From Bacilli bacterium (GTDB taxonomy: Bacteria > Bacillota_I > Bacilli_A > RF39 > UBA660), in contig SKGN01000068.1 in assembly GCA_007117415.1 (NCBI GenBank), positions 1 through 34,693 on the forward strand: a stretch of DNA of 34,693 bases, given 5' to 3'. The notes below the pieces were generated by a model that did no database searches, was not told the origin of the DNA, and saw only the letters and a program-made list of their open reading frames with translations. This document shows positions 18,242 through 22,674 of this stretch, piece by piece. The stretch's first letter is position 1. The number at the start of each line of letters is the position of its first letter. The position numbers and the translations under genes are program-made.

Positions 18242-18943
18242 TTATTTATATGTTATTTCAGCTTGAGCGTAACCAAAAAGAAAATCTTCTTCTATTAAAT
18301 CTCTATCTATATCAATTTTATAAATAGCCATAGTATTAGAAAAACTAACCAAACCTTTTCCTTCTTCATAAACCCTTTCTTCCATATATTTATTGTTAAA
18401 ATAACCTTCAATATTATCTATCTCTAATTTGGTTTTATATTGTTTTTTGCCATCATTTAAAAGATTTATTTCCACAATAGTTGTTTTAACTACATATGAA
18501 TTATTATTTATTACTAATTCTTGTTCCCAAGAATGATTAACTCTAAGGGGCGTTTTTAAGATTATTTGATTTGGAACAAGTGAATTCAACTTATTATCAT
18601 AACCCTCTTTTCTATATTCATCGTTATTAATAATCTTTTCAACAATCCTATTTTGATCAATGATATATTCAATCTTAAACTGCCGTTTTTCTATTTCATC
18701 AGAAATACCATTGATCATATAACCATTTATATTATAAATAGTTTTATTCTTATCTTTAGTAATATTAGTTATTTCAACTTTGTGAGCATACTCAGCCATT
18801 CCCACATATCTTGCTTGAACACCAATTTGATCTGGAAATATCTTTAATAATTCTTCACTTTTATTTATCATACAACTTGAAAAACCAAATAATCCCATTA
18901 CTACACAAATTAAGCTTATTCTAAAAAACATTTTATCACTCAC
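18242..18943 (-). CDS. Putative lipoprotein of unknown function
   Basis: Signal peptide ending LFGFSSC (lipobox-like); start at GTG 18943 or ATG 18931. Confidence 0.65.
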   Translation of the reverse strand: MSDKMFFRISLICVVMGLFGFSSCMINKSEELLKIFPDQIGVQARYVGMAEYAHKVEITNITKDKNKTIYNINGYMINGISDEIEKRQFKIEYIIDQNRIVEKIINNDEYRKEGYDNKLNSLVPNQIILKTPLRVNHSWEQELVINNNSYVVKTTIVEINLLNDGKKQYKTKLEIDNIEGYFNNKYMEERVYEEGKGLVSFSNTMAIYKIDIDRDLIEEDFLFGYAQAEITYK

Positions 18944-18982: not shown

Positions 18983-20059
18983 TCACTTAATCTTATTTTC
19001 GTATATTATATAACGATAAATTATTTTACCCTTTATTATAAAAAACCAGGTTTGTAAATCATTATTAACATTATTTTCATAACATAATATGGGGCCACTC
19101 GCTTCATCAGCAAAATCTAATAATTCATCAAAAGCAGAAACTTCTATAAATTTAAATTCTGGCAAATCAATAAAATTAAGAATATTTACAATTCTAAAAT
19201 CGTAATCTTTTTTTATTCTTTTTATTTTTGATTGATATACACTATAACTTTCTTCAACCCATTTTCGTTTTAAATAAATGAAAATAATGAAGATAGCGCC
19301 TAAAACTAACAACAAATTATAGATAAGGAAAAAGTACCCCACCTCTTTCTCTTTGGTTTCTTCTTTCGTTATTTCCTTTAATTGATTCTCTTCTACCATT
19401 TTATTTATATGAAACGTTTTAACACCAAGTGGGATATTGATAATAACATTATCAGTTTCTTTAAAATATTCATCATTTACAATGCCCTCTATATTAACAA
19501 TCATATTTATTTTTAAAAAGGCATCAATTGGAATGCCTAACGTTTGTCTGAATCTATTAACCATCTCATTATAGTCCCTTAAATCAATTTTAATATTTTC
19601 ATTAATACTAAACCGAGATCCATATAAATCGTTATTTTTTTCGGCAATTAACTCAACATCTATTTTCCAAATATCATGATAATTACTACTTGATAAACCG
19701 CTCAAATTTCCTATTAAACTACCCTTTACCTTATAATGGTAAATTAAATTTATATCGCCCACCCCAGAAAACTCATAACCTATATTTAAATTTATATAAT
19801 CAACTAATTCCGTAATATAATGACGATTCATTTCAATATAAGGTTTATTAATAAATTCATTTTCAACAATAAACACTTGATAATCCAAATTCCTAAAAGC
19901 GTTATATTTATATATCAATGTATTATTCATATCATTTCTAATAAAAAAGCGCCAAACATTAATTGAAGCATTACCTAAAATAAAAAACATAATCACAAAA
20001 AAGAATAGAATTATTATTCCTTTAATCTTTTTTTTTAATTTTTGTTTTTTAATTTTCAT
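18983..20059 (-). CDS. DUF5305-like membrane protein
   Basis: TM helix, large external domain, second TM, then a tail IEVSAFDELLDFADEASGPILCY...IYRY; ATGA-coupled to the signal peptidase gene. Confidence 0.75.
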   Translation of the reverse strand: MKIKKQKLKKKIKGIIILFFFVIMFFILGNASINVWRFFIRNDMNNTLIYKYNAFRNLDYQVFIVENEFINKPYIEMNRHYITELVDYINLNIGYEFSGVGDINLIYHYKVKGSLIGNLSGLSSSNYHDIWKIDVELIAEKNNDLYGSRFSINENIKIDLRDYNEMVNRFRQTLGIPIDAFLKINMIVNIEGIVNDEYFKETDNVIINIPLGVKTFHINKMVEENQLKEITKEETKEKEVGYFFLIYNLLLVLGAIFIIFIYLKRKWVEESYSVYQSKIKRIKKDYDFRIVNILNFIDLPEFKFIEVSAFDELLDFADEASGPILCYENNVNNDLQTWFFIIKGKIIYRYIIYENKIK

Positions 20060-21243
20060 ATAATAACCTCGTTTCTATTATTAATGGAAACGGTAACATC
20101 AATATAATTAAAAAGTTTTCTAAACCATATTGAGGGATAACCTATTTTAGGTATTACATAAATAACTTTTCCTATAACCTGTTCTTTATTTATGCTCTTT
20201 TGATCAACATTAGGGTTATTATCACCCTTAGTTATAAAAACTATATTACCTCTTTGATTGTTTTTTTGAATTACCCTATGAACTATTATATTTTTATTAC
20301 TTATGTACCCTATTACATCTCCTATTTCTATTTTGTCAATTTTTTCTTTTTTCATTAACACTATGTCCCCAACTCTAAATGAAGGTTTCATACTATCACT
20401 ATAAACAACAAGTGGATACGTTGGAAAAAGACCAATTATAAATGCAATCATAATAAATAACAAAAGAAAACTAGGTATCCATTTAAGAGGATTCATGCTT
20501 GATATATCTTTTGGTTTAACCTTTTTTTCTTTTTTATTAATTTTATAATATATAATCCAAAACCCAAAAAGAGGAATAAAAAAGTCAAAAAATCGCTTCA
20601 CTAACCAAGAATGATTAGGAAGAATAGGTGATAACCAATAAATAGATGTAGTAATTAACCGATATATGATAGTCGGCACATAACCTCCTATCATAGCGAT
20701 ATAATTTAAAAAAAGATTTTCAATTGCAACAGGCAATAAAAAACCTACCAAAAAACTAATTTTTTGGTTACCGTTTTCTACATTTTCAAAAAGATAATTA
20801 AAATTAATGGCTATTAAAATATAGATAACATATATTAAAAGAAAGACTTTCTTTTTATTGTTTCCACCTTTATTAATTAAAACAGCTCTAACATATTCCT
20901 GCGTTATTATAATTGTCCCAATAGTCCAAAAATTAATTAACAATCCTTTAAAAGAGTTATCATAAGGATTATGACCGTAACCATCTATTAATCCTAATAC
21001 AAAGTATAAAATTATATAAAATAAACTTATTATAATAACCCATTCAAAAACTTTTTTTTTATATTTCCATCTTATCTTTAAGTCAAAATCTAACCACAAA
21101 TAAGTTATAATTGCTACTACTAACAAATAAAAAGGATTAAACACGTTAAAAGCAAAAACTTCTCTACCTACCCGATCAAAGAAGTGATTAGTAATTACCA
21201 AAAAAAAGATTAATCCTAATATAACTATTAAACTTCTTCTCAT
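20056..21243 (-). CDS. sipW: SipW/archaeal-type signal peptidase I (S26) fused to an N-terminal multi-TM domain
   Basis: VYSDSMKPSFRVGD (Ser), IVHRV (His), FITKGDNN...D, GKVIYVIPKIG; about 270-aa hydrophobic N-terminus. Confidence 0.85.
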   Translation of the reverse strand: MRRSLIVILGLIFFLVITNHFFDRVGREVFAFNVFNPFYLLVVAIITYLWLDFDLKIRWKYKKKVFEWVIIISLFYIILYFVLGLIDGYGHNPYDNSFKGLLINFWTIGTIIITQEYVRAVLINKGGNNKKKVFLLIYVIYILIAINFNYLFENVENGNQKISFLVGFLLPVAIENLFLNYIAMIGGYVPTIIYRLITTSIYWLSPILPNHSWLVKRFFDFFIPLFGFWIIYYKINKKEKKVKPKDISSMNPLKWIPSFLLLFIMIAFIIGLFPTYPLVVYSDSMKPSFRVGDIVLMKKEKIDKIEIGDVIGYISNKNIIVHRVIQKNNQRGNIVFITKGDNNPNVDQKSINKEQVIGKVIYVIPKIGYPSIWFRKLFNYIDVTVSINNRNEVII

Positions 21244-21258
21244 TATTATTTCTTCTTT

Positions 21259-21849
21259 CTATAACATTGGTAAAAGAATAATATGAAAATAAAAATATTT
21301 ATGGCACTCGTTAACAATATATTCAATTTTTATAGTTGTTGAAACTTCTTCAGATAAGTTATTTAATCTTGTATTAAAACTAACGGAAACGGTAACATCT
21401 GAGCCTATTGGAACTGTATTTAAACTTAAATAACTATTAACATTAAACAAATTATTGTTTTGACTACTATAAGTAACATATGTCTCTCCTTCACTAAGAA
21501 CAAACGGATAAGTATTATTTAATTTAAAACTTAAATTAGTAACCCTATTAGCGGGAGAGTTACGATGAATAGCTCTATACACCAAGAACAATTCGTTTTC
21601 AACTAAATACTCATCTTCAATTATAACTCGAGGAGGAATATCTCCTATTGTATAACGATTATTTTCTAAATCTAATTTAGTTAAAGTGACATTTAAACTT
21701 TCATCACATTCATATGTTAAAGTATTAGCCGTTCCTTCAATATGAATATTTTCAGAAAAAAGCGCTAAACCTATCCCTAATGTGATAGTATATACTAGCA
21801 CTAAAAAGATAATTGTTTTTGTTTTTTTGAATACAGGTCTTTTTCTCAT
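21259..21849 (-). CDS. SipW-type signal peptide protein, putative minor TasA/CalY-like subunit
   Basis: Basic N-terminus, TM helix, GLA|LFSENIHIEGTA; beta-rich body with two Cys. Confidence 0.7.
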   Translation of the reverse strand: MRKRPVFKKTKTIIFLVLVYTITLGIGLALFSENIHIEGTANTLTYECDESLNVTLTKLDLENNRYTIGDIPPRVIIEDEYLVENELFLVYRAIHRNSPANRVTNLSFKLNNTYPFVLSEGETYVTYSSQNNNLFNVNSYLSLNTVPIGSDVTVSVSFNTRLNNLSEEVSTTIKIEYIVNECHKYFYFHIILLPML

Positions 21850-21876
21850 TAATATTTACCATATTCTATTCAACAA

Positions 21877-22383
21877 TTAATATCCAACGCCCGTATTTTG
21901 TTCATATCCCAATTCGACCGTAAAGTTGATACTTTTATCACCAGTAGTCGATTGAGAACTCCAGTAAACTCTTATGGCAAAAGGATACTCTTCTCCGGCA
22001 TCAATTGGGATATCTTCTTCAACTCCAATAAGTTCAACTACTATATCAGGGTCATCATTACCCGTAATAGTTATCGTTCTTAATATTGCTGAAATGGTTC
22101 CAACATTTTTTACTACTATATCAATTTGAGCTCCAGCTCCTGGATATTCTAAATCTTCAACATTAATCGTTAGTGTTTTTCTATCAACTGATATCGTAGC
22201 CGTAGGATTAGAGCCAACCACATCACTAGTAGAAGCTGTTAAAAATTGAATATCAAATTCACCAGTTGTACCTGCTGTTCCTCCAATATAAAGAACTTCA
22301 CCAAACAAAGCATAAGCTCCAATCAACCCGATAATAGCCAAAACTAACCCTGGTATTAAGATGTTAAATCGTCTTTCTCTCAT
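21877..22383 (-). CDS. TasA/CalY(camelysin)-like putative fibre subunit with SipW-type signal
   Basis: AYA|LFGEVLYIGGTA, LEYPG...VKNVG motif, C-terminal FTVELGYEQ strand. Confidence 0.75.
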   Translation of the reverse strand: MRERRFNILIPGLVLAIIGLIGAYALFGEVLYIGGTAGTTGEFDIQFLTASTSDVVGSNPTATISVDRKTLTINVEDLEYPGAGAQIDIVVKNVGTISAILRTITITGNDDPDIVVELIGVEEDIPIDAGEEYPFAIRVYWSSQSTTGDKSINFTVELGYEQNTGVGY

Positions 22384-22410
22384 ATCTATATTTCCCTTCT
22401 TGTTTATTTA

Positions 22411-22439
22411 TAGAATGTTCTTTTTTGCTTATTTTATAC
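22411..22439 (-). promoter_or_regulatory. sigmaG-like promoter of the SipW operon
   Basis: GTATA-17 nt-CATTCTA, matching the B. subtilis sigmaG pattern GHATR-N17/18-CATWHTA. Confidence 0.55.
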
Positions 22440-22445
22440 ATTTAA

Positions 22446-22467
22446 AAACATGCTCTTAGGCATGTTT
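22446..22467 (-). terminator. Intrinsic terminator
   Basis: AAACATGC-TCTTAG-GCATGTTT after the 22477 stop, with a T-run on the minus strand. Confidence 0.6.
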
Positions 22468-22476
22468 AATAATCTT

Positions 22477-22674
22477 TTAATGATCATCTTTTTTTGACTT
22501 ATACATATGAAAACTTTCTATAGCCTTTTCACCCTTTATATTATGTTCACCTTCTTTAGATGTAGGATACATTCTAAAATTTTCTACTTCCACTTCATTT
22601 TCATGTACATTTTCATCAATATGATCATCCTCTTTATTAACAGACACTACTATTTCACCACCTTTTCTTTTCAT
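22477..22674 (-). CDS. Small charged hypothetical protein
   Basis: Own terminator; probable GTG start at 22647 after AAGGTGGTGA; GTTTA-17 nt-CATAATA upstream. Confidence 0.6.
   Translation of the reverse strand: MKRKGGEIVVSVNKEDDHIDENVHENEVEVENFRMYPTSKEGEHNIKGEKAIESFHMYKSKKDDH

Follow-up and report, generated by a model that had tools for sequence, protein, structure and literature searches.

We analyzed a four-gene locus in a 34,693-nucleotide (nt) stretch of DNA (positions 1 to 34,693 of contig SKGN01000068.1, assembly GCA_007117415.1; hereafter the window) from a member of the Bacilli (RF39; UBA660). The source assembly comprises 833,750 bases in 71 contigs and is 89.5% complete; the window lies on its contig C50 and has a low G+C content (about 0.23–0.35). 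Four open reading frames (ORFs) are packed on the minus strand within positions 18983–22383. In the order of transcription, they encode a putative major fibre subunit of 168 amino acids (aa) with a profile match to the fibre protein AbpX (21877–22383), a divergent AbpX-like paralogue of 196 aa as a putative minor subunit (21259–21849), a polytopic signal peptidase I of the endoplasmic reticulum (ER)/archaeal type of 395 aa (20056–21243), and a DUF5305 protein of 358 aa (18983–20059). The intergenic spacings are 27 nt and 15 nt, followed by a 4-nt ATGA overlap that couples the start of the DUF5305 gene to the stop of the peptidase gene. All ORFs and spacings were read directly from the sequence; the ORF coordinates are those given in a first-pass annotation, made by a model from the letters alone, and its description of four tightly spaced minus-strand genes with an ATGA-coupled last pair holds. 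The same annotation had interpreted the locus as a self-contained surface filament operon with TasA/CalY-like subunits. Our results support a secreted fibre locus of the TasA superfamily with a SipW-like peptidase, but not the TasA/CalY label. Instead, the locus is probably a bacterial fibre module of the AbpX type within the TasA superfamily, equipped with its own peptidase and with strand-donating subunits.

In each small protein, a basic N-terminus leads into a hydrophobic helix and then into the junction ...YA|LFGEVLYIGGTA in the 168-aa protein and ...LA|LFSENIHIEGTA in the 196-aa protein, in agreement with the earlier reading of two small beta-rich proteins with a signal followed by a hydrophobic strand. 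In the 168-aa protein, the signal peptide covers residues 1–25 (22309–22383, minus strand) with predicted cleavage at A25|L26, the putative donor strand LFGEVLYIGGTA covers residues 26–37 (22273–22308, minus strand; assigned from the AbpX alignment below), and a beta core spans residues ~41–165 of the AlphaFold2 (AF2) model. Cleavage of the 196-aa protein is predicted at A29|L30, ahead of the putative donor strand LFSENIHIEGTA, again with F at +2 and E at +4. The two proteins thus share an A|LF-x-E N-terminus. This module of signal plus donor strand was found in the window's two small genes only, as judged by a motif scan and two hidden Markov model (HMM) searches of every ORF in the assembly.

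To place the 168-aa protein, we built up its family in steps. A word-based search returned six relatives, and an exhaustive profile search returned 4409 cluster representatives at E ≤ 0.001, with 897 at E ≤ 1e-10 and 43 at E ≤ 1e-30. From these, we used an alignment (A4) of 81 rows, made up of the 168-aa protein and 80 of 156 found proteins, each of about 200 aa or less; it leaves out longer proteins and the remainder of the 156. When the A4 profile was searched against PDB sequences, the best match was the AbpX fibril chain 9sj2_C (E 2.1e-6, 30.8 bits), followed by the AbpX crystal chain 9rhp_A (E 1.7e-5), and the next chains were unrelated (E ≥ 0.03). Smaller queries gave the same match at E 0.0038 (6-sequence profile) and E 0.07 (the 168-aa sequence alone); the likeness to AbpX amounts to about 25–30% local similarity and is detectable by profile only. 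The alignment begins within the donor strand (AbpX S3-E4-T-L-S-L), with S3-E4 on residues 28–29. Phe27 therefore corresponds to AbpX Trp2, which places cleavage, and hence the mature N-terminus, at A25|L26.

The 168-aa protein also carries the sequence marks that the available text of a January 2026 preprint gives for AbpX-like proteins, namely an aromatic residue at +2, an acidic residue at +4, an isoelectric point (pI) near 4, and about 15% Asp/Glu (10.64898/2026.01.04.697558). The +2 position is Phe in the 168-aa protein and F/Y in 68 of the 81 A4 members; the +4 position is Glu, with D/E in 50/81 and Q in 14. For the mature 168-aa protein, the pI is 4.05 and the Asp/Glu content 15.4%, and the mature pI is below 5 in 75/81 members. 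On this sequence evidence, we assign the 168-aa protein to the AbpX clade of the TasA superfamily. Because of its large family and its match to AbpX, it is likely the main fibre subunit, and the earlier call of a major subunit is supported at that strength.

These results make it highly improbable that the locus is the counterpart of tapA-sipW-tasA of Bacillus, a canonical operon of the TasA/CalY type (camelysin, Peptidase_M73). The substrate N-termini are indeed of the A|xF type, the ER-type peptidase is partly similar to the SipW model (NF046067, 62.3 bits), Peptidase_M73 (PF12389) is weakly matched by 2 of the 81 A4 members (best E 0.0054), and the Atlas cluster nearest to the 196-aa protein among those with any Pfam family has PF12389 in 22% of its members (score 0.90). 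However, neither the 168-aa nor the 196-aa protein matches any Pfam or NCBIfam family at E ≤ 0.1, Peptidase_M73 included. Moreover, the peptidase falls far below the SipW equivalog cut-off of 190 bits and has eight helices in addition, a TapA-like gene is absent, and AbpX, rather than TasA, is the closest solved relative in sequence.

Next, we considered the predicted fold. The AF2 model of the 168-aa protein, built from a 6-sequence alignment, has a mean predicted local distance difference test score (pLDDT) of 81.9 and an eight-strand beta core at about 90, with residues 31–38, in the donor strand, below 50. According to the available text of the preprint, the AbpX monomer likewise has an unstructured N-terminal extension, and the core of AbpX-like proteins is given there as a jelly roll (10.64898/2026.01.04.697558). 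A Foldseek search of the model against PDB gave no match at E ≤ 0.001, and the structural matches were generic Ig-like sandwiches. The latter, together with weak CARDB matches in 11 of the 81 A4 members, would suit two beta-sandwich proteins, secreted or at the surface, that have a dedicated peptidase and remain monomers, either CARDB/Ig-like adhesins or proteins that bind the matrix. We regard such non-polymerizing proteins as quite improbable, since the N-terminal strand, which is conserved, disordered, and amphipathic, lines up with the donor strand of AbpX, and cryo-EM shows the latter inserted in the fibril. In addition, many large proteins in related genomes start with this N-terminal module, as would befit tip or anchor proteins that dock by strand donation: among the 150 family representatives listed, 35 exceed 300 aa and, by our own count, the AbpX-like domain is N-terminal in 35/35. 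As a separate observation, one same-family genome of 1.3 Mb (G013) has 45 AbpX-like domain matches, mostly at the N-termini of ORFs of ~600 aa; these are possibly variable tip adhesins.

In AbpX, calcium is bound at three sites at the strand-groove interface by D18, D46, D48, E52, E4, and E142, as given in the available text (10.64898/2026.01.04.697558). In our alignment, E4 corresponds to Glu29 and D18 to Asp44 of the 168-aa protein. D46 and D48 are matched only approximately, by Asp67 within 1–3 columns, where D/E occurs in 68 of the 81 A4 members.

We then examined the locus in related genomes, using a co-occurrence search of 40 relatives (24 genomes of the same family and 16 of other families) along with the window's own genome. 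AbpX-like matches were found in 14/24 same-family genomes and in one of the 16 others, where the match was weak. DUF5305 and the full-length polytopic peptidase were each found in 14/24 same-family genomes and in 0/16 others. The 14 genomes positive for the AbpX-like gene, for DUF5305, and for the full-length peptidase are identical. The remaining ten same-family genomes had no AbpX-like or DUF5305 match, and five of them matched the catalytic part of the peptidase only. One genome of the same genus, 94% complete, has neither an AbpX-like gene nor DUF5305 nor the full-length peptidase, and its peptidase matches are confined to the catalytic domain. This strict co-occurrence in the same 14/24 genomes is independent support for subunit, polytopic peptidase, and DUF5305 forming one functional unit.

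Gene order was scored by HMM in 22 loci, that is, 19 stretches from the 14 genomes, the window, and loci L002 and L004; L016 comes from the same contig as locus L001. The order subunit(s)-peptidase-DUF5305 on one strand was found in 20/22 loci, and the other two (L032 and L033) are broken by contig ends. Given this recurrence, the arrangement did not arise by chance, and the linkage of DUF5305 and S26 peptidase genes, a neighbourhood that the first-pass annotation had pointed to, is conserved. Seven of the 22 loci have a protein of 400–1000 aa with an AbpX-like N-terminus after DUF5305; the window has a 233-aa gene in this place. A species-wide scan with the 6-sequence alignment returned four loci. 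Three of them, two of uncultured Bacilli and one of a Clostridia genome, show the order subunit(s), ~380-aa peptidase, DUF5305. The fourth scan locus (L003: 7989–9530) encodes a 513-aa protein with an AbpX-like N-terminal domain and BspA-type leucine-rich repeats, beside a second leucine-rich repeat protein; neither a peptidase nor DUF5305 was found among the ORFs scanned there.

The 395-aa protein matched TIGR02228 (sigpep_I_arch) at 96.5 bits against a cut-off of 51.85, over residues 259–373, and failed the SipW equivalog model as described above. It aligned with human SEC11A (7p2p_A) at E 1.4e-10, with conserved SxSM, HR, and GDNN motifs, and Ser284, His322, and Asp341 are invariant across four homologues. 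By hydropathy and homology, it consists of an eight-helix membrane domain (residues 1–235), an anchor helix (250–282), and an extracellular catalytic domain (283–395). Alignment-averaged hydropathy resolved nine segments with K/R-rich loops on alternate sides, which implies a cytoplasmic N-terminus and an extracellular catalytic domain. The earlier identification of a multi-transmembrane (TM) Ser/His-type S26 peptidase is thereby confirmed.

The eight-helix domain deserves separate mention. It occupies positions 20539–21243, and free-standing homologues of 221–283 aa occur in bacteria and archaea (Atlas). No Pfam match was found in residues 1–250. Conserved motifs of the domain are P93-Y94, N104-x-W106, Q115-E116-x-x-R119, I185-G-G187, and P206-I-x-P209, and the Atlas gave a weak structural likeness to Rce1/CAAX proteases (TM 0.62/0.56). 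An active protease of the CAAX type (CPBP/Rce1-like) nevertheless appears unlikely from the sequence and was rejected: in this domain, the four homologues share no invariant His, only Q115-E116-x-x-R119.

The 358-aa protein matched DUF5305 (PF17231) at E 9.7e-21 (74.6 bits, cut-off 29; profile positions 1–217). Its hydrophobic segments delimit TM1 (~15–36), an ectodomain (~37–238), TM2 (~239–268), and a cytoplasmic C-terminal domain (~269–358), as anticipated by the description of the fourth gene as a two-TM DUF5305-like protein. A search against PDB sequences gave no match at E ≤ 10. DUF5305 is present as a single copy in the genome, and it stands directly after the polytopic peptidase in all related loci that have both. 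In the accessible text of the relevant reports, DUF5305 is proposed to assist the signal peptidase, on the grounds of peptidase fusions, paired duplication, and resemblance to the eukaryotic complex (10.64898/2026.01.04.697558, PMC11821415, PMC12337348).

The first-pass annotation had instead given the DUF5305 protein the part of a membrane anchor or of a platform for fibre assembly. This role would be compatible with our explanation for the other three genes, and it draws on the two TM segments with an ectodomain of roughly 200 residues and on the fact that no other anchor is evident in the locus or the genome; furthermore, the available part of one report records no knockout of DUF5305 to date (PMC11821415). 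We nonetheless consider it unlikely that the protein is an anchor or platform rather than a peptidase accessory. It lacks the donor-strand motif (motif scan and HMM searches, all assembly ORFs), and its gene always directly follows that of the peptidase, with the ATGA overlap in the window. Fusions of DUF5305 to signal peptidases are on record in the accessible text (10.64898/2026.01.04.697558, PMC11821415), and DUF5305 is present in haloarchaeal taf clusters, where, as far as the available text goes, TafF is the proposed anchor (PMC11821415). An accessory of the peptidase is the role that we prefer for DUF5305.

Next, we turned to the 196-aa protein. BLASTP between the two small proteins aligned the N-terminal stretch alone (12/21 identical, E 0.004). 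Two relatives of the 196-aa protein are in hand, from L001 (51% identical) and L010 (26%). A profile-profile comparison by hhalign of this three-member family (A5) with A4 gave a probability of 97.7% and E 1.5e-12, mapping residues 1–179 onto 1–162. We therefore assign the 196-aa protein, from sequence, as a divergent paralogue of the 168-aa protein, which is consistent with the minor-subunit role that it had been given earlier. Its mature form has a pI of 4.72 and 11.9% D/E, with Ala29, the residue just ahead of the predicted cut, taken as the start.

Residues 180–196 (..HKYFYFHIILLPML) lie outside the shared domain. From hhalign and AF2, they form a predicted extra C-terminal strand (residues ~180–196, 21262–21312, minus strand) that ends ...YFYFHIILLPML. 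In the AF2 model, strand 182–193 is hairpinned to the last canonical strand, 169–179, at the best local pLDDT of the model, about 71–75. The tail is retained in 3/3 members of the 196-aa family as FYF/FYY-x-x-II, and it occurs in no other small subunit of the 22 loci, which end in the usual Y-x-Q motif. In an engineered single-chain AbpX (sc-AbpX), the donor strand occupies its own acceptor groove, as described in the available text (10.64898/2026.01.04.697558). By analogy, we tentatively suggest that the 196-aa protein might be self-complemented: its tail (YFYFHIIL) would fold into its own groove while its N-terminal strand plugs a 168-aa subunit, making it a cap at the groove end of the fibre, or else a nucleator, as TapA is for TasA. 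We hold this idea to be clearly less probable than its converse. If true, it would be a built-in terminator or initiator for chaperone-free donor-strand fibres, hitherto undescribed.

Taken as an AbpX-type module, the locus could work as follows. The 168-aa and 196-aa precursors would be exported by Sec and held in the membrane through their signal helices. The 395-aa peptidase (Ser284/His322), probably partnered by the DUF5305 protein, the product of the overlapping next gene, would cut after Ala25 of the 168-aa protein and after Ala29 of the 196-aa protein. Cleavage would release an N-terminus of the form L-F-x-E-x-hydrophobic-x-I-x-G-T-A, predicted to be disordered in the monomer. The freed strand would then enter the open groove of the beta-sandwich of a neighbouring subunit (donor-strand complementation), and the product would be a chaperone-free acidic fibre, chiefly of the 168-aa protein. 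With Asp44, Asp67, and Asp111/113, the conserved Glu at +4 may form a site for a divalent cation where strand and groove meet, as it does in AbpX of Pyrodictium abyssi. The 196-aa protein would enter the fibre by the same donor strand, and its C-terminal strand may fill its own groove to give an end cap or nucleator. We infer strand insertion and polymerization from the sequences of the window proteins.

Several observations weigh against this proposal. Conservation of the calcium ligands of AbpX is partial: Lys69 takes the position of E52, and E142 falls outside the alignment. The AF2 model of the 196-aa protein is of low confidence overall (pLDDT 56.5). No sortase match was found in the 89.5%-complete genome, on which ground we rejected sortase-based anchoring, and the locus has no LPXTG or SLH gene. 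Lastly, the genome encodes four further type I signal peptidases, two of the bacterial type and two of the ER type; exclusive processing of the locus substrates by the 395-aa peptidase is plausible. Regarding the metal, the only public run that contains the stretch carries the label of a soda lake metagenome and may be the very sample from which the assembly came. In a soda lake, little calcium would be free, which calls for caution on calcium dependence if this habitat applies.

The resemblance to described systems is closest for the abpX loci (P. abyssi AbpX with homologues from archaea and bacteria; 9sj2, 9rhp). Both have a small acidic subunit with a signal for signal peptidase I, a donor strand, and a beta-sandwich core (predicted for the 168-aa protein), and in both the subunit gene stands next to genes for a many-TM signal peptidase I, DUF5305, and an AbpX-like minor subunit. 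The available text of the preprint reports that AbpX forms calcium-dependent donor-strand fibrils, and it presents abpX loci of bacteria that comprise a many-TM signal peptidase I, DUF5305 as the proposed peptidase accessory, and minor subunits (10.64898/2026.01.04.697558). The combination is therefore already described, and the locus is a further example rather than a new system. Some differences are nevertheless apparent. We counted nine membrane helices in the window peptidase, whereas the preprint, in the text available, states ten. Unlike the bacterial abpX loci named there, the window locus lacks an SLH/LPXTG anchor, a sortase, and cyclic di-GMP or kinase genes. Moreover, the window's minor subunit has the extra C-terminal strand, and the calcium ligands of AbpX are conserved in part.

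Similar to TasA-SipW-TapA of Bacillus subtilis, the locus combines a dedicated ER-type peptidase beside a fibre subunit with a minor protein; in that system, according to the accessible text, TasA polymerizes by donor-strand exchange and TapA acts by strand complementation (PMC9674648, PMC10151520). By contrast, the small proteins of the locus have no Peptidase_M73 match, its peptidase is polytopic and followed by DUF5305, and its minor protein is a paralogue of the subunit and not TapA-like. The haloarchaeal Tat-fimbriae (tafi; TafA/TafE pilins, TafD, and TafG, which is DUF5305) likewise cluster donor-strand pilins, an S26 peptidase, and DUF5305, as far as the available text describes them (PMC11821415, PMC12337348). 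Deletion of tafD, the signal peptidase gene of a DUF5305-containing haloarchaeal taf cluster, is reported there to block pilin processing (PMC11821415). In the same accessible text, the tafi pilins use Tat, whereas the window proteins have no twin-arginine motif, and TafD, unlike the window peptidase, combines four helices with an Ig-like domain at its C-terminus (PMC11821415, PMC12337348). Lastly, the eukaryotic signal peptidase complexes of SEC11A/C (7p2p, 7p2q) are alike in that their catalytic domain aligns with that of the window peptidase and that the enzyme includes accessory membrane subunits, but the window's eight-helix domain and DUF5305 have no detectable sequence similarity to the solved chains. 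The locus, from a reduced genome of about 0.9 Mb, adds a minimal and anchor-less bacterial case to the recently described AbpX fibre modules. With four genes and only two predicted substrates, it would be a convenient system for the roles of the eight-helix domain and DUF5305, the need for metal, and the start and end of the fibre.

Elsewhere in the genome, we noted two further loci on contig C41. The first (L014: 3281–5139, minus strand) encodes a 198-aa two-TM ER-type peptidase (TIGR02228, 74.8 bits) directly upstream of a 409-aa secreted protein with a weak AbpX-like profile match (E 0.0034); this is possibly a second, classical SipW/TasA-like pair. The second (L015: 521–2728, minus strand) encodes a protein of 735 aa in which a SipW-type peptidase domain at the N-terminus is joined to a long charged C-terminal region; ORFs resembling it, of about 680–840 aa, occur in relatives. 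Together with the peptidase of the fibre locus, the ~0.9-Mb genome has five type I signal peptidases.

Housekeeping or envelope genes with no relation to the fibre locus lie on both sides of it: a polysaccharide deacetylase and an LtaS-like sulfatase-family protein are encoded upstream, and a glutamate-synthase-like FMN protein, Hsp20, and an RsgI-like protein downstream. The 233-aa gene that lies 39 nt after DUF5305 (18242–18943, minus strand) is lipoprotein-like (…LFGFSSC…) and has no Pfam family. It has no relative in the 24 same-family genomes searched, and its one match among the 40 relatives comes from another family of the same class (E 4.9e-30). As it is also missing from the closest locus, L001, we rejected it as a fifth member of the module.

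Upstream of the fibre genes, a palindromic, terminator-like hairpin (22446–22467) separates them from a 65-aa ORF. It is among two terminator-like sites found, against 0.6 expected in shuffles, and probably ends upstream transcription, in which case the fibre operon would start within 22384–22445. A promoter scan was uninformative (31 sites against 36.9 expected in shuffles). The 65-aa ORF itself (22477–22674, minus strand), which the hairpin follows, is acidic and has two x-F-(R/H)-M-Y repeats. In L001, part of it is conserved ahead of the fibre genes (58% over 33 aa, E 2.7e-8).

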